Assembly: GCA_030429145.1 (NCBI GenBank)
Contig: JAUIDC010000001.1
Span: forward strand, 540,001-572,000
DNA from: Candidatus Saccharimonadota bacterium
GTDB taxonomy: Bacteria > Patescibacteriota > Gracilibacteria > Absconditabacterales > Absconditicoccaceae
Length of the DNA: 32,000 nucleotides
Reading direction: 5' to 3'
Shown: one piece after another, positions 4,596 through 30,087 of the stretch
How the letters are laid out: each line of letters opens with the position of its first letter
How positions within the stretch are numbered: position 1 is the stretch's first letter
The notes under the pieces: model-generated
Seen by the model: only the letters and a program-made list of their open reading frames with translations
Told to the model about the DNA's origin: nothing
Database searches by the model: none
Program-made: the position numbers and the translations under genes

Positions 4596-5168
4596 ATGAA
4601 GGCAACAAAAAGAGCATTCACGCTTATCGAAATGCTGATAGTTATTGTTATTATCGGTATTCTCGCGGCAGCTTTAGTTCCTAGACTTGTATCAGTACAA
4701 GGTAGAGCAAGAGACACAAAACGTAAGGCAGACCTTTCACAGATTGGTTCAGCACTTGCTATTTATAAGACTGACAATTCAACTTTCCCTGCGGCATCTG
4801 GTAACGTATCTCTCGTGCTTGCAAACCAATACTTGAGTGGATACCTTACAGCGACACCAACAGATCCTGTATCTACAGCAGGAATCCCAGAGATGGGTGC
4901 GTCTGCATCAAATACAGGTTACGGATACCTTTCTGTAACAAGAAATGGTGTAACATCTAACGGTTCGGCACTTGCTGCTCAAACTGAATCAGATGGTACA
5001 AGTTCAAATGCTATCATCTATACTGGTACGATGAACCACAGTACGACAGCTGAGACTTTGGACTCATTCCTTGGAACATGTAACGGAAGAGCAACAAAGG
5101 GTTCTACATTCAACCCTACTACGTGTGCTGCTCCTGCTACAGGTCTCAGATACTACTATGTACAATAA
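4596..5168 (+). CDS. type IV pilin / pseudopilin-like protein (prepilin-type N-terminal cleavage/methylation domain)
   Basis: MKATKRA|FTLIEMLIVIVIIGILAAALVP is a class III signal with the invariant Glu5. The C-terminal half is rich in Ser/Thr/Gly. The track's start at 4488 adds 36 implausible residues, so I prefer ATG 4596. No TGA. Confidence 0.8.
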   Translation: MKATKRAFTLIEMLIVIVIIGILAAALVPRLVSVQGRARDTKRKADLSQIGSALAIYKTDNSTFPAASGNVSLVLANQYLSGYLTATPTDPVSTAGIPEMGASASNTGYGYLSVTRNGVTSNGSALAAQTESDGTSSNAIIYTGTMNHSTTAETLDSFLGTCNGRATKGSTFNPTTCAAPATGLRYYYVQ

Positions 5169-21235: not shown

Positions 21236-22165
21236 TTAATATCCTTTTGTCGTATCCCAAGGCCTCGTTTGCAGTTTTCTTTTCATGGCGAGAGCGGTAC
21301 CATAGTCTGATTGCAGATATTGTTTATCGAAAAGCTTTGACATAAACTGGTATTTCTTTCGTAGGTTCTGGTCGGTTGTAGCAAGTACAGAAAATACGTG
21401 GTGATGATTGAGATAAAGATTGAAACTTTCTGCAAAATCTTCGAAGGGATCACTCATAGCATAGCCACCAACAAATGAAAGTGTACGAGCGTCTGCGTGT
21501 CTCGTTGTATTATTTTTTCGACTAATGGTATAAAAATCAACAGATGGATCATCTATACGGAAAAATGAGTTGTCGACATTGTAAAATGAGTTTTGGATGA
21601 GACGACTATTTCACTGTAATACACTCAGGTCAACAATATGTCATAACTCATGCGTCAAAATTTCAATAAATTCTTCATCATTATGAAAGTTTCCCATGTT
21701 CAGTGTGATGGTTTTACTCCCTGCTCGTCATCTACGAGAACCTTTTTCACTATGCAAAGTAAGAGAGTAGAGAACGTCACTCAGCTTTACATTGTGAGCG
21801 AGTATATCATCGATACGATTTATTTGCCTGATGACTATTTCTTGATAGTGTCTTTTTTGCGTCTGAGAAAATTCTCCTATAAAGAGAATCTTTTTGCAGA
21901 GAGTTACCTGTGCGTCACAGTTATGATCTAGAGGGATTGGAGCAATCGTCGCTTGTGTTTTCATCGGTTGATCTTCTTTGACTGTTATGTGTACGGGAAG
22001 ATCGAAAGATGTGAGAGCTGCTCACTGTGCACTCTCCATCATGCGTGGAGATGTCGCTCTTTCTCCAGCTTGAGGAATATTCGTAAAATAGGTTGTACAT
22101 ACGCTGAGCAGTCAGCATGCAAGAAAGAAAATAGTCTTTGTCCTAGGTGTGTGAAATGTGCCCAT
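21236..22165 (-). CDS. secreted/lipoprotein zinc metallopeptidase-like protein (HExxH)
   Basis: Track ORFs 21236..21457 and 21728..21964 join in one frame through five TGAs. The N-terminus MGTFHTPRTKTIFFLAC has a lipobox-like FLAC. The zinc motif is H-E-L-G-H at 21638..21652, with TGA (21641..21643) encoding the Gly. Downstream lies GGYAMSDPFEDFAESF, typical of small putative zinc-binding metallopeptidases. An alternative ATG lies at 22207. Confidence 0.7.
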
Positions 22166-24218
22166 AATAGGATAGATCGGCTGAGATAATGTGTTCCAAT
22201 GGGCCATTTATACACAAAGTATATATTTTGTCAATGTTTATTTTCTGTGCAATACATTGGAGATAAAAGTCATAGCCCCCTATGATAATATTGTATGGAG
22301 AGGTTTTGATAGAGAATATGTTTTTTCATTTTCCGCCTGTAATATTTTCTCCATGTACCTTGTGTTTCTGTGGTTTATGGTTGTGGAGTCGAACAAGTAG
22401 TTCTTGTGATGTTTGTTTGTTGTTTGAGAAAATATAGATGTTTTTTTCATCGTAGGTGAGTTTGTCCTTGCCTGGTCGTGCGACGACAGGAGGAGTGGCA
22501 AATGGACTAGTATGTTTATTGAGAGGCTGTCGGTCTTTTTTTGTGTGAGACAGAAAAATAGTCTGGTAGGTGTCAAACAGTTGCTCAAATTCACTGTAAT
22601 CGAGATAAGAGTGCAGTTTTTTGACAGTAAAATGTACCTCGTTTCACTGTAGTCTCGTTGAGATAACGCATGGAGCGTTAAGAAGGTCCGTAAAGATAGT
22701 TCGCTTTTCTTTAACGATCTCTCGATCTTCGTCTGAAACATTGTTTTCTAGCGAATGTATCAGCTCTGTTATCTGAGGAAGGAGCAAGTTTATCTTGTAG
22801 AAGTAGGTGTTGTCTGCTATGTTGTCTACCTCGACAGCGCTATTGCTGACATCTTTGAGGAGATTGGCGACTTCGGTTTGCCATATACCCAAGAAAATAA
22901 CGAGCTTCGTATGCAATGTTTCTCGCGGTGACATCTTTGAGGAGTCTAACAGCTGGTCTCTGTAGAGCAGTGAATCAGTGATTTGTAAAAGTAGGTGTAA
23001 GTCAAATGGCTTTTGAGACCGTTTCATGTGAGTATCATATCGCCAATCTTGATCGAAGAAGAAGATGGTTGTGTACGGCATGATCTCATGGTTGCGCATC
23101 TTTTCATAGAGCATTTCGTGTGTGAGCAGTTCGACAGGCTTTGCTCACTGTTTCTTCTCTCTCTCTTTCAGAGCATGGTAGATCTTTCGATCAGAGCCGC
23201 TATTGAGATCGATATTGCTATGTTCGGACATAGCATGAAAGAAGTATTTGAGCGCAAAGTAGAGTTCATGTTGATCAAAAGATGTTTTACGAAAGAACAA
23301 TCATAGTAATTTTGCGTCAAAAAGATGCTGATTGCCAGTTTCTATGTGCGTAAGGCCGAGCTCGTGAAGTACATTTTTAGCGATCTGTATTTTATGTCTT
23401 TGGGAGAATGCATAGATGACATTTTCTTTCGGTAGAATCTTGCATGCTTCTTTGAGAGAGCGATCACCAGTGAAATGTCTAGCTTTATCAGTGAAAGAGT
23501 CAGTCGTTAAGGTGTCCGGTGTGATAAGTTTTTTGTCGCTCACATATGTCTTGTTGAGTAGTGGAATCGCCGTTGTCAGACCACTTGGTAGTGACGGTAT
23601 TTCTATAATTTCTGTAAGTGCACACTTGCCACGTTGGAGATAGCTCATTATTTGTTCGTACTTTGATGCAGTTTGTTCTATGCGTTTGATACACTCTAAA
23701 AACACTCTTTGAGTCGCATAGGCATCATAAAGTGCGTCGTGGTGTGTTGTGCCGTTAATCTTTTCTGCGCTATCGTTTTTTGCAAGAAGGAGCGACTTAT
23801 CAAGTACCTCAAGCGCATAACTTGGAGAAAATGGCATAAGCGACTGCGCTAATGGGAAGGTGTCTACTTGTGTCAAGTACTCAAAAGAGCCATATTGAGC
23901 TAAGATGCTCAGGTCAAACTGGATATTGTGTCCTATAACGACCGTATTTTTATCAAAAAACCTTTTTACCTCGTCGGATATTTCATGAAATGATGGGGCG
24001 TCTCCTAGTTGCTCTATCTCTAATCCCGTGATAACACGAACGATATCTTTGAGTTCTTGTAGCTCCTTTTTCGGCTTTATATAGCTGGAAAAAGTATCGA
24101 GAGTTTTTCCTGTATGATCAAAAGAGACAATTCCCACTTGAATTGCTTCGTCGTTCTCAGGGTCCAATCCTGTTGTTTCAAAGTCGATACACACATAACG
24201 CAGGTCTTTACGAAGCAT
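22143..24218 (-). CDS. DinG-like protein: N-terminal DEDDh 3'-5' exonuclease (DnaQ/epsilon-like) fused to a divergent helicase-like region
   Basis: Track ORFs 23301..24236, 22644..23114 and the region down to TAG at 22143..22145 form one frame, joined through four TGAs. Exonuclease motifs: CIDFETTGL (ExoI), VIGHNIQFDLSIL (ExoII), HHDALYDAYAT (ExoIII, DEDDh). The C-terminal region has DinG-like blocks (ELLTHEMLYEKM; IFFFDQDW at the DEAH position; IIIGGYDFY..INGPL), but I see no Walker A motif. I prefer ATG 24218 over TTG 24236. Confidence 0.75.
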
Positions 24219-24330: not shown

Positions 24331-25611
24331 ATGACAGCAGTGCTGTGATTTTTTCTTCTATTTGCCGCACTTTACCATCTTTTGGTAACAGTTTTTGTTT
24401 ATGGACTTGGACGAGTGCAGCCTGAGATGCTCGTAATTTTCAGGGATATTTTTCGACTTGTGATTTTCTTTGTATTGGCGATTGTTCACAGAAAAATATT
24501 TGTGGACTATGTAAAGCGTACATGGAAGCTTTGGTGAGTACTTATTTTGCTAAGTTTCTTTGCGCTTGCTGTATCGTACATACAACAAAAAACAATGACT
24601 GATATGCTCGTATGAGCAAAGTATGGCATGCAGTTTTTCTTTGTGTTTTTGATGGCTACATTTCTTGGGCAGATCTTTTCTCAAAAAGGCGCGCAGAAGT
24701 TTCAATCCTTTCTCCATATCCTTTTCTATATCTTCGTTTGAATAATTATTGTCGGAATTCTTTGGCAGGTGGGTAAGATGTTCTATCCTGAGTTTTTCTA
24801 TTCGCTTGGATATGCGACATTTGGTGACTGGGTGTTTGGGCAGAACCCTCCTTTGTATTATCTGACCTGACCAGGTGGATATGCGAGACTGAGTGGTATT
24901 TTCTCATGACCAAACAACTATGGATATCTTTTTGTTGGACTGTTTGGCTTCTGGCGACGATATCTTCGCACCTATGTAAAACAGAGATGAGTGAAGGTGT
25001 TGCTTTGGGCCTTGTTTGCCTTTAGTGTTCTTTGGACGATGTCGAGAGGAGCTGTGCTAGGTATCTTTTTACAGATCATTGCACTGTCGTTTGTGCTTTT
25101 CCACGCAAAGCGCTCGTATATCATAGGACTTCTTATCTCAGCGATCTTGATAGCTGGGGCGCTGAGTCTTATTAAACGAGGGTCTACAATGGCTCATGTG
25201 ACTGCTAAATTTAGTAGCCTTGCCTATGTGCGAGCAAATCCGTGGGGTTATGGACTTGGTTCGTCGGGGCCGAGTATCCATACTGGTCACGGTAGTATTC
25301 TGCCTGAAAATTTCTTTGTACAAATACTGTTAGATATAGGTATTCCGTGAATGATTCTGTGGCTGTTGTTCCGATATATTGTACTCAAAAATATCCGAAC
25401 TCGTATCAGAAAGTTGGCTCGCCATGATAAATATGCGGTGTTGCTTATTTGTTTGTCTTTTGGTTTCTTAGGTCTTCTTCTAGAAGGAATGTTCCTTCAT
25501 GTCTTTGAAGACAGCATGGTCAACTATTGGTTCTTTATTCTGTGGGGTGTGACATACGGATATCTGTTAGTTCCACGTTCTAGTAGTTCTACTGAAGAAC
25601 AACAAAGTTAG
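24331..25611 (+). CDS. O-antigen ligase / Wzy_C-domain family membrane protein
   Basis: ATG at 24331. Eight in-frame TGAs (24346, 24535, 24613, 24739, 24868, 24907, 24988, 25348) join an unlisted 220-codon N-terminus to track ORFs 24991..25350 and 25351..25611. It is polytopic, with RLSGIFSGPNNYGYLFV, TMSRGAVLGIFLQ and the periplasmic-loop region GSSGPSIHTGHGSILPENFFVQILLDIGIPG typical of Wzy_C proteins. Confidence 0.8.
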
Positions 25612-26524
25612 TCACGACATACGACACACCGATGATGAGTATACCGATGATAATATAGAGGAAATTTTTCTTGATCCTGTCAATTTGTTTTTCGTCTGTT
25701 GGATTTCTGAGAAGGTTGATTGCTTCGACGATGATAAGTACTACGACGATGAAGCCAACAAGTCCCATAACCCAGTTGAGTACGACATAGAGCCACGCAA
25801 ATGATTTGTCTGCGAGTACTCCCGCACCGATGTCTGCGAGTGACGTTGCATTGGGATTGACGACATCTTCTTGTCTTCCGAATATCGTTTCGACAATAGA
25901 TTTTGAAAAGAGGATGGTCAGGATACCGACGGCATTCCAGATGATAATTGTTCTGGCGTGTTGCTTAATCTTGTCGTCAGGGTTCATCAAAAATCTGAAC
26001 ATATGGAGGAGGAGTATGAGAAATAGCACACCAACTACGACAAACATAATCATCTTTAAAAATGGGAAGATGATCAAGCTGTATAACTTTCGCGCGGCGA
26101 CATTTCCTTGTAGCTGAGTGAAGTCGAGGACTCCGCCTGAGCCAACGAGTCTATTAGCTATGAATGAGGCAGAAAGTATGATGATGATTCCTACAACACC
26201 TCGTAACACATATCTAAATCCTTTCTTTTGCTCTTCTTCTTTTTCTGAAGACATAATCTCATAAAATCACAATATCGACATCAAGACACCAACGATCACA
26301 ATGACCGGTACAATAATTTTCTGTAGTACGGCAATCACAAGATCTCTCGCTCATTCTGCTCATCCCTGCGCACCGGCGAAGCCGGCACCTTCCAGGTGTT
26401 GCTGGATAGGCTGTGTTGCATCTTGTATGGCATTGTCAAAACGTGCTGCACCAAGAAATCAGATATTGAGCGCAGCAAATCCGACAAAGAATATCGATAC
26501 AAGAAGTTTTTTCAGAGCGTGCAT
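25589..26524 (-). CDS. membrane protein of the VirB4 module: signal peptide plus VirB2/TrbC-like N-terminal segment, continuous with a 4-5 TM body
   Basis: ATG at 26524 (MHALKKLLVSIFFVGFAALNIGFLGAA..). Four in-frame TGAs. The frame runs without TAA or TAG into track ORF 25589..26254 through TGA 26267..26269. Under the standard code it would split into an 85-aa secreted TM protein and a 221-aa membrane protein. Track ORF 26301..26537(+) is its antisense shadow. Confidence 0.55.
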
Positions 26525-26550
26525 GTGGAGATATTAGTGGAGATAAAAAT

Positions 26551-27576
26551 CTATGATGATTGATGTGTATTTTGTGTGCTTTGACTTTCTATGTTGACGA
26601 CAGGCTTTGTTCTTTTTCCTCACAGTAGTGAGTAAAGAAGAGGCACCTTTGGTAGCTTACCTGAACTTATAGTCATAATGATCTTGCCAAGCAACAATAT
26701 TTGTGGCAGTAGTGCAAGATTTGCACCTACTGTTGGGTCACTATTGAGCCGTGTGATATAACCTCGGTAGCCGATTGCTCAGATGACGACTATATAAGAG
26801 ATGATGGTACGTCGGTGTGTGAGGGGTTCTAGCTGACTGTAGGTGTGTTTTCGTGTGTTGATCTCTTGAGATAGTGTAGAGTTTTTTTGAAAAAGTTTTT
26901 TGAGCGGATGAATAAGTAATGAGAGTGGATATGCGATGAACTCTTCTATGTTTGTATGAAATCGTTTGTTGATGCTTTGTTTCATAGAAAGAGACAAGAT
27001 GTCCATCCCAGCAAGTAACATGATACATCTGATCGCGATAATGATGAATCCTAAGAATATAACAGTAGTCGTTGGCCAGATGCTGATCAAGATAATATAG
27101 AGAGACCAAAGCAGTACGCTTTCTTTGATCCATCGGTAGTTATTCTTGTCGAGAGTCTCGTTGTACCAAAGATAGAAATTGTAGAGTGGAATGAAATAGA
27201 TGAGGATAGTGGGATTCGTATGTGCCACTGTTTTCTCTCATGGCTGTATTTCTTGATGCACTATGGTTTTGTTATTGATGACAGCAAAAACGCCTATGAT
27301 GATCATGGCGATGACGATACTCATAAGTCCATAGTTGATCCAGTAGAGAACTGGTATAGTGAAAAAGAGTGTGTAGGTTCCTCGAACGATGAGAGCTGTA
27401 GCTAGCATAGTTAGCACCCAATATCCATAGCGGATATAGCTTTTCACATAGCTTTCTTCGTCTGCTGTGATGTCGATATTTTTTTCTTTCAGCATAAAAG
27501 AGACAGCAGGTGCCAGTAGCATGATAGCTGCAAGTGACGCAAGGTGTTTATCTGTAAATGTGTTGTTTGATGACAT
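26551..27576 (-). CDS. polytopic membrane protein of the VirB4 module (about 8 TM; VirB6/TrbL-like role possible)
   Basis: ATG at 27576 directly abuts the virB4 stop (TAG at 27577..27579). Track ORFs 27238..27576 and 26779..27228 and the tail to TAG at 26551..26553 form one frame, joined through TGAs at 27238, 26779 and 26620. The translation is very hydrophobic. I recognise no motif. Confidence 0.55.
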
Positions 27577-29724
27577 CTATTTTACATCAGTAGTGATAAA
27601 CTCTTTTTCGAATGGTGAGGCAAGTACTTTGATAGCAACGTGTTGATTGCCGGCAAAGAGTACTCATTCACCAATGCCCGCCGCAACGAGTCTTTGTTTC
27701 TCGGCATCAGATAGTCCTACAACGCTATTGAGTTCTTTGATAGATGCTGTTGATTGTTTAAGGAGGAGCTGTATAGCCGAGTTGGTAATGATTGGTTTTC
27801 CGTATTTTGATTTTGCAAAGTCCTCGATATCCTGTGATATAGTGGTGATACCGAGTCCATACTTTCTTGCTCTTTTGACCATACCATAGAGGAAGTTTGC
27901 AGAGATGTCGTTTTGCATCATAATCCATGCTTCATCCACTACGAGAAGTCTCTTTTCTTTCTTTGATCTTACTTTGGTCCAGATATAGTTGAGGATGTTG
28001 TACATCGCTGGTGTTTTAAGCGCCTCGTCGAGATCTCTAATAGAGAAGACAGTAAGTCCTGTGTTGAAGTCAACATTGGTTTGGTTGTTGAAAAGTTTCC
28101 CGAAAGTACCAGTAACATACTTGCTGAGTCTCACGGCAATGCTGTTTCCACCATCCATACCTTCAAGAACATGAAGGAGATCTTCCATAATAGGAGGCTG
28201 TTTTCCGCTGTAGTCGTCTTGTTCAAAAGTAATCTCTTTGAGTGCATATGTTGACTGTAGTGCACGGTCGAGTAGTGCTTCTTCTTCAGGAGAAAGACCT
28301 CCAATAAGTACTGAAATCAGACCAATGAGACTCATAATTTGTGTTCTCAAAAGGTCGCCTTTGCCATATTCGACATCTTCCACCTTAGGAGGTAGGTCAA
28401 ATGGATTGACGTACTGCTGACTGTTGATAGCGATGTTGAGGTATGTTCCACCTACTTTTTCACAAAGAGCTTTATATTCATTTTCTGGGTCGATCACGAT
28501 AGTTGGGATGCCTAAGAGGAGGTATCTCATGATTTCAAGTTTCACGCTGAATGATTTACCGGCACCGGATGTCGCTAGTACGACGCTGTTCCCATTTGGT
28601 AGTTTCTTACTGAAACGGTCAAAGATAATGAGTGAACCAGTCTGCAGGTTTGCACCATACAAGATACCAGTTTGTTCAATCAGATCGTTTGAGATAAATG
28701 GAAAGCTTCCTGCAAGAGAGGTGGTTACCATAGATCTTGTGATGCCTAGTTCATCAAGTGCTAGAGGCATAGTAGCATTGAGCCCCTCGTCCATTCTTTG
28801 GATCGCAGGTTTTACTCTGATACCGTAGCCAGCAATTTTTTGTTCAAGCTTTTTACTTTCTTCTGAGAGCTTCTCTTCTGTTTTGTCGTAGAGAGAAATA
28901 TAACATGATGTCTCAAAATACCTTTCTTCACGAGAAGCGAGTTTCTGTCTAATCTCTTCTACGTCACGGTATTGGAGTTCAACTTCTGTGTCGATAGTGA
29001 TGCCTTTTGAGGCAGACTCATTCATCTCGGCCCTCAGCTGTGTTGAACGTCTCTTAAGCATGCTCTGAATGTCTGCATCTTCTTCTGGATAGATAAACCA
29101 AGACATATCCCATTTATCATAGAAGTTCATCATATCTCTTGTTCGGAGGAAGTCGATATATGAAGGGTAGTTGTGTGCATAGTAGGTTTTACCAAATAGT
29201 CCAGAAAGGTTGATACCTTGTGGTTTTACCTCTCGGTAACTTGGTGCCATGTGTGACTTATAGTCAGAAAGCGATGACACGTACTCTTTTTCTATCTTTT
29301 GAATGTGTTTTCTTAGTTCTGAAGTCATCATCTTGTCGCTATATTGATCCTCAGGCATCTCAATAAGCTTTTTGATTTGTTCGGTAAGGGTCTCGTCTTT
29401 GTGAGCTGCATCAATTGCAGCTTGCTCAGCAGCTTTTTTTGCATCTTGTTGTTTCAGCTTCTTTGGATTACCAAAGAGCCAAGAGAAAAATCTACTGAAA
29501 AATCCTGGTTTCTTCTCTTTTTTCTCCTTTTCGTTTGGCTTGTTCGATGATCCGTCATTTGGGGTAGCTGTGCTAGTTGCCACTCCCGTCTGTCATGTAG
29601 AGGCCTCTTGTGTAGCTAGTTCTTCCTGAACTTGCTGTGCCTCCAATGTCTTTTCGTCGAAATACGGAAATCCTCCCTGAGGGATGAGCTGTGTGTAGTT
29701 TGTGTCATAAACAACATTCAACAT
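27577..29724 (-). CDS. virB4: VirB4/TrbE/CagE-family type IV secretion ATPase
   Basis: Track ORF 27664..29583 extends at both ends through TGAs (27664..27666, 29593..29595), running from ATG 29724 to TAG at 27577..27579 (715 aa). Walker A: VVLATSGAGKSFSVK. Walker B: RLLVVDEAWIMM. Also IDPENEY, GITTISQDIEDF and the C-terminus GIGEGVLFAGNQHVAIKVLASPFEKEFITTD. The N-terminal roughly 110 aa are Lys/Glu-rich with a hydrophobic patch, GFFSRFFSWLFG. Confidence 0.85.
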
Positions 29725-29827
29725 GCGCTTTTCGGTTTTTGTTTTATAAATCTTCTACTATTATAGGGAAATAGTAAAAAACCAGTAATTTTAGCATAGG
29801 ACTGGACGATTACGGCGCAAAAAGAGA

Positions 29828-29858
29828 TTGACACTTTTGTGTAAAATATTTTTAGTAT
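29828..29858 (+). promoter_or_regulatory. weak candidate promoter upstream of fusA
   Basis: A perfect -35 TTGACA (29828..29833), but the best -10 is TAGTAT (29853..29858) after a long 19-nt spacer. It would give a leader of about 225 nt. Confidence 0.25.
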
Positions 29859-30087
29859 GTGTCTGTCGCGTTTAATGTGTTGATTGTCTTAAAAACTTTT
29901 TCGTATTCCCATTGCAATTTAGCGGTAAATCCGTATATATTTGCGTATTGCTTTCGACCATTCCCGATGGTGGGAAAAACGGCAGAAAGATAAGGATTAT
30001 TATGGCACGATGATAGAAGGTTTGTGGCCGTTTGTCATCATGTCATTTTAGTTTTATTTACCATATTTAATTACTTGTTTAACTCCT

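Follow-up and report, generated by a model that had tools for sequence, protein, structure and literature searches.

Three genes on the minus strand of a 32,000-nucleotide (nt) stretch of contig JAUIDC010000001.1 (assembly GCA_030429145.1, forward-strand positions 540,001 to 572,000) are described here; this whole stretch, from a member of the Absconditabacterales, is referred to as the window. The genes encode a VirB4-type ATPase of 715 amino acids (aa), designated g715, a polytopic membrane protein of 341 aa (g341) and a pilin-like membrane protein of 311 aa (g311), and the families of the last two are designated F341 and F311. The SR1 bacteria (Absconditabacteria) are recoded and either predatory or episymbiotic. 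In these organisms the locus represents an unusually minimal form of a known kind of machine, a type IV secretion system (T4SS), and not a new kind of machine. An original prediction, made from the letters of the window and its open reading frames (ORFs), had proposed a minimal VirB4-centered module at this position, and its claims are considered below together with the evidence that bears on them.

Genetic code 25, in which TGA specifies glycine, is used in the window. Twelve long ORFs contain 62 in-frame TGA codons and terminate only at TAG or TAA. When read with table 11, the region at 25.5-29.8 kb falls apart into fragments, whereas table 25 resolves it into three packed minus-strand ORFs, which confirms the predicted gene arrangement to the exact coordinate (Table 1). 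These ORFs contain two (g715), three (g341) and four (g311) in-frame TGA codons, and all three end in TAG. Homologues deposited with TGA read as tryptophan carry W at invariant glycine positions, for example ATSWAWKSF at the Walker A motif of protein P0103, which provides independent support for code 25. Proteins of public relatives are often translated with TGA as tryptophan or split at TGA, so that their gene calls are fragmented (L086, L087).

The ATG of g341 (27576-27574) directly abuts the TAG of virB4 (27579-27577), as had been noticed originally, and 26 nt separate g341 from g311. A scan for intrinsic terminators between the three genes found none, with counts at the chance level. The abutting stop and start codons, the short second gap and the lack of an internal terminator together indicate an operon structure. 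The GC content of the module (0.40-0.42) is the same as that of the remainder of the window. The possibility that a 70-aa ORF upstream of virB4 is a hidden VirB3 was dismissed; this ORF possesses no transmembrane (TM) segment and no homologues and is regarded as spurious. At the opposite end, the 3' end of g311 overlaps a convergent gene for a Wzy_C-like (O-antigen ligase-like) membrane protein (24331-25611, plus strand) by 23 nt (25589-25611), which leaves no space for a terminator between them.

Table 1. Features of the three-gene locus and a candidate pilin gene elsewhere in the window (window coordinates).
Feature	Position	Strand	Details
virB4 (g715), 715-aa VirB4-type T4SS ATPase	27577..29724	-	CD1110/MPF-FATA type (monoderm); codons 44 and 687 are TGA, read as Gly
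N-terminal motif NVVYDTNYTxxIPxGG, aa 3-18 of g715	29671..29718	-	No variation at D7 and Y10 among 22 SR1 homologues
Amphipathic aromatic patch GFFSRFFSWLFG, aa 74-85 of g715	29470..29505	-	Lys-rich flanks; candidate in-plane membrane anchor
Walker A ATSGAGKSF, aa 384-392 of g715	28549..28575	-	K390 and S391 invariant in 22 homologues
Walker B RLLVVDEAW, aa 592-600 of g715	27925..27951	-	D597 and E598 invariant in 22 homologues
g341 (F341), 341-aa polytopic all-helical membrane protein	26551..27576	-	Directly 3' of virB4; SR1-restricted orphan family
g311 (F311), 311 aa, signal peptide and three tandem VirB2-like pilin hairpins	25589..26524	-	From pilin profiles and hydropathy
Predicted signal peptide, aa 1-27 of g311	26444..26524	-	Lys-rich stretch and hydrophobic segment ending GAA
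Pilin unit 1, aa 55-128 of g311	26141..26362	-	PF18895 E = 4.5e-6, 27.1 bits (above cutoff); TrbC E = 1.1e-5
Pilin unit 2, aa 146-214 of g311	25883..26089	-	Most divergent unit; PF18895 E = 0.0055, 17.2 bits (below cutoff)
Pilin unit 3, aa 238-311 of g311	25592..25813	-	PF18895 E = 5.4e-7, 30 bits (above cutoff)
Upstream intergenic region, presumed operon promoter	29725..30087	-	363 nt, 34% GC, AT-rich; between divergent fusA and virB4
Candidate solo single-hairpin VirB2-like pilin, 155 aa	1653..2120	+	Signal peptide, hydrophilic stretch and 2-TM hairpin

The assignment of g715 to the VirB4 ATPases is supported by several profile matches. The NCBIfam model of the CD1110-family VirB4-like proteins (NF045971) reaches 344 bits, above its curated cutoff of 325, aligning residues 145-698 of g715 with positions 177-734 of the 752-position profile, and PF19044 (P-loop_TraG) scores 86.6 bits (cutoff 25.8; E = 1.8e-24). 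Matches to the models of the ATPase of Mycoplasma integrative conjugative elements (ICEs), the F-type TraC and VirB4/CagE are weaker, and the first of these (NF045975, 262.7 bits) falls far under its cutoff of 590. Models of other ATPases score much lower, at 35.7 bits for HerA/DUF87 and 12.6 bits for the TraD coupling protein, and the archaeal models CedB (NF041017; 44.6 bits, cutoff 700) and CedD (21.8 bits, cutoff 600) are missed. Along with the plasmid relatives, which are VirB4 and TraE proteins, these scores place the ATPase with the VirB4s of T4SSs and not with FtsK/HerA. The 715-aa VirB4 with clear Walker A and B motifs of the original prediction was likewise upheld, the key residues of both motifs being invariant in 22 homologues.

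The relatives of g715 are found mainly in one lineage. Among the best 120 of thousands of relatives, identities range from 59 to 88%, and all named sources are SR1/Absconditabacteria or related groups within the candidate phyla radiation (CPR). Absconditicoccus praedator, Vampirococcus lugosii and RAAC1_SR1_1 are among these close relatives, and identities within the Absconditabacteria are 60-88%. The closest VirB4s outside SR1 are those of Gracilibacteria, Peregrinibacteria and Saccharibacteria, with 40-50% identity. In PLSDB plasmids, the best relatives are VirB4/TraE proteins of Actinobacteria and Firmicutes, all of them monoderms, which share 28-33% identity and whose matches start at residues 117-180. 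These identities are consistent with a place of g715 in the patescibacterial VirB4 clade. By homology, g715 is assigned as a genuine VirB4 motor that belongs to the CD1110/MPF-FATA (mating-pair formation type FATA) lineage of monoderms, with a predicted ATPase activity.

Because the plasmid VirB4 matches begin only at residues 117-180, the first ~115 residues of g715 are lineage-specific. They comprise a conserved N-terminal motif, which supports the annotated virB4 start codon, a linker of hypervariable length and composition that is of low complexity, and a Lys-flanked aromatic patch. Specifically, the patch follows the pattern [KR]xGFFxxxFxxxFG, which is kept across SR1 despite the hypervariable linker, and an FFxxLF(G/W) patch is present twice in the SR1 VirB4s P0020, P0031, P0037 and P0043. 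The Lys/Glu-rich extension with an amphipathic patch that had been described in this protein was therefore found both to be present and to be conserved in pattern. No TM segment is predicted in the VirB4 N-terminus. The patch has a hydrophobic moment of 0.41 and a mean hydrophobicity of 0.49, and it was not the top candidate among 14-residue windows in a hydrophobic-moment scan. Its candidacy as an anchor comes from conservation, duplication and high hydrophobicity, and not from the moment alone. We take the patch to resemble the membrane-targeting helix of MinD-type proteins. Conserved, sometimes duplicated and with no PrgI/VirB3 gene nearby, it may plausibly stand in for a VirB3-type tether.

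The third gene of the operon encodes a pilin-like protein of unusual size. The whole of g311 matches PF18895 (T4SS_pilin) with 45.8 bits (cutoff 26.6) and NF045849 (Mbov_0395 pilin-like) with 47.5 bits (cutoff 40). Its hydropathy profile contains seven hydrophobic segments, consisting of a signal-like N-terminus and three two-helix hairpins. The signal-like segment and VirB2/TrbC-like hairpin that had been predicted are both present, although the single hairpin of that prediction has become three. A hidden Markov model (HMM) made only from single-hairpin pilins of CPR loci other than SR1 was used in a six-frame scan of the window. It matched unit 1 at 26153-26353 (independent E-value, iE = 2.4e-6), unit 2 at 25877-26119 (iE = 3.3e-5) and unit 3 at 25598-25816 (iE = 2.4e-7), and the hhalign probabilities of the three against single-unit CPR pilins were 95.8, 89.8 and 95.3%.

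Single-hairpin pilins usually comprise about 70-150 aa, so g311 lies outside their usual size, and its orthologues reach 957 aa. The six-helix core is constant in 14 SR1 orthologues of F311. Ahead of the first hairpin, after the signal peptide, they carry an insert of 0 to ~700 aa, which is presumably an extracellular domain. Inserts of ~190-700 aa were seen in L003 (13097-15970), L002 (13083-15167) and L011 (4342-5670), and there is almost none in the copy of the window. Orthologous units are 40-45% identical between species, whereas paralogous units of the same protein share no more than 18-20% identity. This pattern implies that the triplication predates the diversification of SR1 and that each unit is individually conserved. 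Both termini of VirB2 lie outside the cell, which makes a head-to-tail fusion through external linkers geometrically consistent. No description of intragenic pilin fusions was found in the literature, and the survey of 2025 describes arrays of separate pilin genes (PMC12102498). Overall, the profile matches identify g311 as a probable secreted membrane protein of three anciently triplicated VirB2-like hairpins, for which assembly into a pilus is predicted.

The second gene, g341, is the least familiar of the three. Neither g341 nor any of 89 F341 members belongs to a Pfam family, g341 has no NCBIfam family, and a search of the F341 profile against the PDB sequences revealed no relative. Word-indexed searches with g341 gave only 11 and 18 proteins, as hydrophobic words swamp the index. 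An exhaustive HMMER scan of 1.84 billion proteins, in turn, recovered 185 cluster representatives of F341, nearly all with lengths of 270-360 aa. The conserved motifs of the family are IMFFAP, GYIKxGY, YIPLYNxYLWY, KES, NPEE and LPxxP. An AlphaFold model from an 89-sequence alignment reached a pLDDT of 87.7 and a pTM of 0.74; an earlier model from 13 sequences (pLDDT 50.6) was discarded. The model has ~7 long membrane helices and a helical soluble insert, which replaces the estimate of about 8 TM segments given originally. A Foldseek search of this model against the PDB, whose library includes complete T4SS assemblies, returned nothing (best E = 1.2, TM-score <= 0.19), and no match was found in BFVD. 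When F341 was compared by hhalign with the PrgI/VirB3 (0.4%), TrsD, candidate VirB6-like (b6a; 0.1%) and pilin-unit families of the CPR, all probabilities were below 1%.

In its size, its polytopic helical nature and its position directly after virB4, with which it is translationally packed, g341 is similar to VirB6/TrbL. In contrast, it possesses no sequence, profile or PDB structural match to these proteins, and the likeness is positional only. A VirB6/TrbL-like identity, which the original prediction had raised for checking, thus found no support by sequence or fold, and the name VirB6 is not justified for a protein that occupies the VirB6 slot of the operon but shares no sequence, profile or fold with it. 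This result agrees with the 2025 survey, which describes VirB6 homologues as 'absent' from the Gracilibacteria, a finding taken as 'suggesting extreme sequence divergence' (PMC12102498). The F341 data would allow such extreme divergence or, equally, a non-orthologous replacement. As far as the comparisons go, g341 can be described as a predicted lineage-specific polytopic membrane protein that travels with virB4 and g311, and it may be the membrane platform of the system.

The distribution of the three genes was examined in 80 species-representative loci, for which the genetic code was inferred locus by locus, genes were called and iterative HMM searches were performed. The SR1 clade, with VirB4 scores above 900 bits, comprised 16 loci. 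Contiguous virB4, F341 and F311 genes were found in 12 of these, one of which was seen only by six-frame search. The complete genomes of A. praedator and RAAC1_SR1_1 possess the same arrangement, in which the gene of a ~340-aa protein that belongs to no Pfam family comes after virB4 and precedes that of a T4SS_pilin protein. Two F341 proteins led to independent metagenome contigs, where the gene calls of the database show the same gene order. Both membrane proteins are thus syntenic with virB4, as the prediction of a module implied. The flanking genes differ between the two complete genomes, being rpmG, rpsP, fusA, gatC, a Mur ligase gene, uvrB and frr in one and ATP synthase genes, secG and prfA in the other. 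These genes belong to the ribosome, translation, ATP synthase and the cell wall, and in neither genome is the locus embedded in a conjugative element. Together, virB4, g341 and g311 form one intact, vertically inherited three-gene operon that is specific to SR1 in this form.

Between the window and the distant SR1 genome of A. praedator, protein identities are 69% for elongation factor G (EF-G), 63% for VirB4, 33% for F311 and 29% for F341. The g715 protein appears to be vertically inherited and, judged from these identities, under purifying selection near that on EF-G, so that the VirB4 motor would evolve like a core housekeeping gene and its membrane partners fast.

The virB4 loci of Gracilibacteria, Peregrinibacteria and Saccharibacteria have other neighbours. 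In Gracilibacteria of the BD1-5 type, which use code 25 (L048, L050, L051, L045, L067, L039 and L075), the gene immediately upstream of virB4 encodes a ~400-aa protein with ~3 TM segments. The C-terminus of this protein looks by eye like a PP2C/SpoIIE-type phosphatase, which would suggest regulated assembly.

The usual partners of VirB4 were sought in the 32-kb window and within ±10 kb of virB4 in the other loci. An ORF scan of the window found no integrase, relaxase, VirD4, VirB8, VirB9, VirB10, VirB11 or lytic transglycosylase. The 26 other ORFs scanned were housekeeping or envelope genes or had no Pfam match. Both the missing components and the nature of the flanks had been correctly anticipated, and the more general claim that the module contains nothing else holds for the ±10 kb. 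In the two complete SR1 genomes (CP054059 and CP006913), no relaxase, type IV coupling protein (T4CP) or integrase/replication function was found over this distance, and no effector, chaperone or immunity gene lies at or near the locus in the SR1 genomes examined. Profiles for PrgI/VirB3, TrsD and b6a-type candidate VirB6 proteins were built from other CPR loci. VirB4 members were left out of the TrsD-like profile and of one seeded on a lysine-rich multi-TM protein; TrsD is homologous to the VirB4 N-terminus. With these profiles and six-frame searches, none of the three families was found near virB4 in the 16 SR1 loci. Large multi-TM proteins of 720 and 953 aa, encoded close to virB4 elsewhere in the CPR, gave no Pfam TrbL/VirB6 match, and the b6a reference is therefore a candidate VirB6-like family only. 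In other CPR loci, a PrgI-like gene is present near virB4 in 12 cases and a standalone TrsD-like gene directly upstream in ~10. One CPR locus contains a TrsD-VirB4 fusion with a run of Ns.

This kind of system is already known, since chromosomal, non-conjugative patescibacterial T4SSs with pilins were described in 2023-2025. The original prediction, which saw no demonstrated function for such loci, is therefore partly outdated on this point. In the Saccharibacterium Southlakia, the only organism for which such a requirement is shown, transposon sequencing identified a homologous T4SS cluster and its pilins as essential for epibiotic growth (Wang et al., 2023, PMC10633639; PMC12857230), and the class as a whole has been surveyed. 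The survey places the majority of patescibacterial VirB4s in a single clade within MPF-FATA (Quinonero-Coronel et al., 2025, PMC12102498), and their T4SSs are chromosomal and relaxase-less, with VirB2-like pilins near virB4 (PMC12102498). In Gracilibacteria, homologues of T4CP, TrsD and PrgI/VirB3 exist but are unlinked to virB4 (PMC12102498).

The SR1 locus resembles the cluster of Southlakia epibionticum ML1 (SEML1_0006-0019) and other patescibacterial T4SSs in its monoderm MPF-FATA VirB4, its chromosomal location, its housekeeping neighbours and the lack of a relaxase or coupling protein at the locus. They also share a VirB2-like pilin near virB4, which is unusual for a monoderm. The Saccharibacterial cluster, however, consists of ~14 genes, including TrsD, PrgI/VirB3, VirB6, peptidoglycan hydrolases and six separate pilin genes, whereas the SR1 locus has three. 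In the latter, the pilin units are fused in one polypeptide, the orphan F341 is present, the VirB4 carries an N-terminal extension with a patch, and TrsD, PrgI and a recognisable VirB6 are missing nearby.

A second comparison is provided by the archaeal Ced/Ted DNA importers, for which three parts suffice, namely an ATPase, a polytopic membrane protein and a VirB2-like pilin (PMC9905601). Both they and the SR1 locus comprise a VirB4-like ATPase, one polytopic protein (6-7 TM segments) and a VirB2-like pilin, an analogy of composition only, and both would be domesticated, chromosomal and relaxase-less derivatives of conjugation machinery. TedC and g311 both possess a signal peptide, which is cleavable in TedC (PMC9905601). 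In contrast, TedA has VirB6-like similarity (by HHpred) and F341 has none, and the SR1 pilin is a triple fusion. Moreover, the archaea exchange DNA for repair, whereas SR1 are host-dependent bacteria. The best profile matches of both the ATPase and the pilin come from Gram-positive systems (CD1110, pCF10, pIP501) and Mycoplasma ICEs (Mbov_0397, Mbov_0395), which share the monoderm envelope. These are mobile elements with a relaxase, T4CP, VirB6 (PrgH), VirB3 (PrgI), VirB8-like proteins and hydrolases, none of which was found at the SR1 locus.

The preferred reading, to which a probability of about 0.6 is given, is that the SR1 locus encodes a T4SS-type machine reduced to a single three-gene operon. 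A VirB4 hexamer would dock at the cytoplasmic face of the membrane through its amphipathic N-terminal helix, in place of VirB3/PrgI, and through g341. The latter would serve as a platform or channel and so take over the role of VirB6, although no homology to that protein is detectable. ATP hydrolysis by VirB4 would then pull the pilin hairpins of g311 out of the bilayer, and the extracted hairpins may form a lipid-associated tube or short conduit at the site of host contact. Import of host nucleic acids or other macromolecules is favoured over export, since no coupling protein, relaxase or effector gene lies at the locus and SR1 cannot make nucleotides; both direction and cargo are putative. 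In another lineage, tubular structures at the parasite-host interface and feeding on host RNA have been described (bioRxiv 10.64898/2026.06.21.733656).

A bolder formulation goes further. The locus would be a three-protein type IV machine, among the smallest T4SS-derived machines in bacteria, with an extracellular tube made from a covalently joined hetero-trimer of VirB2-like hairpins, a membrane platform of a novel F341 fold that replaces VirB3, VirB6 and VirB8, and a conduit that draws nucleic acids or macromolecules from the prey. In full, this formulation is speculative and somewhat improbable.

Several observations weigh against the three-gene reading. Four of the 16 SR1 loci deviate from the gene order: F341 is truncated to 107 aa in L014 (11844-12167), virB4 is followed directly by F311 in L007 (2208-3296), unrelated ORFs lie between virB4 and F311 in L006, and neither F341 nor F311 is present within 10 kb in L005. 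Either assembly artefacts or a genuine dispensability of F341 could explain these four. In addition, g341 has no detectable similarity to VirB6, VirB3, VirB8 or CedA, and its role is inferred from synteny. Further T4SS parts, such as T4CP, PrgI and TrsD, may be encoded elsewhere in the genome. Upstream of the operon, a perfect TATAAT lies at 29765-29760, 35 nt before the virB4 ATG, and the best consensus promoter match, at 30038-30010, agrees at 10 of 12 positions, but the consensus scan gave no more promoter-like sites than expected by chance. We know of no covalently fused triple pilin that serves as a fibre subunit, and g311 might stay in the membrane. Finally, the function in SR1 organisms, including expression, assembly, cargo and direction, is itself inferred.

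Among the alternatives, a different division of labour within the operon is conceivable but doubtful. F311, with its six helices and often large insert, would be a VirB6-like channel, solo pilins such as the candidate at 1653-2120 would form the fibre, and F341 would be an assembly factor or anchor. The N-termini of VirB6 and CedA are homologous to the VirB2 and CedA1 pilins (PMC9905601), and 'extended' VirB6 proteins carry large hydrophilic domains (PMC12857230), to which the variable inserts of F311 would correspond. Differentiated, individually conserved units are also what would be expected of a fixed heteromeric architecture, and solo pilin-like genes are present in SR1 loci, possibly including the window. 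Nevertheless, F311 matches PF18895, TrbC and NF045849 and no TrbL/VirB6 model, its core profile finds neither VirB6 nor VirB2 among the PDB sequences, and the matches of the solo pilin in the window are weak.

If the three-gene machine instead worked outwards, hydrolases or proteins that poison or manipulate the host would pass into the prey cell, in the manner of the effector T4SSs. This would fit the predatory Vampirococcus and Absconditicoccus, and SR1 isolates are known to kill their hosts (PMC8080830). For the Saccharibacterial T4SS, which lacks recognisable coupling or relaxase proteins, it was suggested that the system "may instead export proteins" (PMC10633639), and effector systems without a T4CP are known in Ptl and Brucella VirB (PMC12102498, PMC12857230). 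The known T4CP-less exporters, however, require periplasmic loading, which a monoderm-like cell does not offer, and neither an effector, chaperone or immunity gene nor a T4CP was found in the surroundings of the SR1 locus. Export is accordingly held to be unlikely.

It is more unlikely still that the locus specifies an adhesion-only pilus, which would hold the host and transport nothing. A pilin-domain protein is the sole extracellular component, and F311 evolves fast and carries variable extracellular inserts, both of which suggest recognition of host surfaces. Yet the established adhesion system of the CPR, the type IV pilus, is already represented in the same genomes and at 4596-5168 in the window (PMC12857230), and a strongly conserved VirB4 motor with a polytopic partner is more typical of a translocon.

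A functionless, decaying remnant of an integrated conjugative element, which the conjugative-plasmid VirB4s as the closest non-CPR relatives of the ATPase and the survival of only three of the usual eight or more T4SS genes might suggest, is effectively refuted by conservation and synteny: all three ORFs are intact, the Walker motifs are invariant, VirB4 is 60-70% identical across the entire order, near EF-G, the gene order is kept while the flanks change, and no integrase, repeat boundary or compositional anomaly was seen at the locus.

The three-gene machine favoured here bears on work with patescibacterial T4SSs, which rank among the most interesting newer members of the T4SS superfamily; they are essential for an epibiont and bear pili in a monoderm. 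In the searchable literature, the three-gene make-up of the SR1 system, the fused triple pilin, the orphan partner and the anchor-like patch of the VirB4 N-terminus appear to be undescribed. The supplementary tables of the 2025 survey contain no entries for the SR1 genome accessions (PMC12102498), and the searched passages of the Vampirococcus genome paper mention no VirB4 and discuss no T4SS. Three genes with an EF-G-like conservation of the motor constitute a candidate minimal core, with which structural studies and heterologous reconstitution would be simpler. A fixed triple-fusion pilin would constrain the packing of any fibre, and a confidently modelled membrane protein without a known relative occupies the place expected for VirB6. 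A. praedator and V. lugosii are maintained in co-culture with their prey, so that these predictions are checkable in principle.

Elsewhere in the window, the genes include holA, efp, a Mur ligase gene, ssb, lepB, tsaD, fusA, a type IV pilin gene and glycosyltransferase genes. The candidate solo pilin (Table 1) is contained within a longer ORF (1383-2120), with holA and efp on either side and a distance of 23 kb to the module. Its matches to TrbC (E = 0.0076), T4SS_pilin (E = 0.031) and the local CPR pilin HMM (17.4 bits) are weak, and the whole-window six-frame scan with that HMM gave no hit there; it is only tentatively considered part of the system. Similar solo pilin-like genes are present near the module in other SR1 loci (L001, 6240-6617; L046, 724-1125; L006, 16996-17439). 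The gene at 4596-5168 (plus strand) encodes a type IV pilin or pseudopilin with an N_methyl motif and a T2SSG domain, and the window thus holds parts of both filament systems thought to be relevant to host contact in the CPR. Lastly, the 691-aa product of the minus-strand gene at 22143-24218 carries a DnaQ/RNase_T-type exonuclease domain at its N-terminal end, its long C-terminal part has no Pfam match, and this gene also neighbours the module in the close relative L086.

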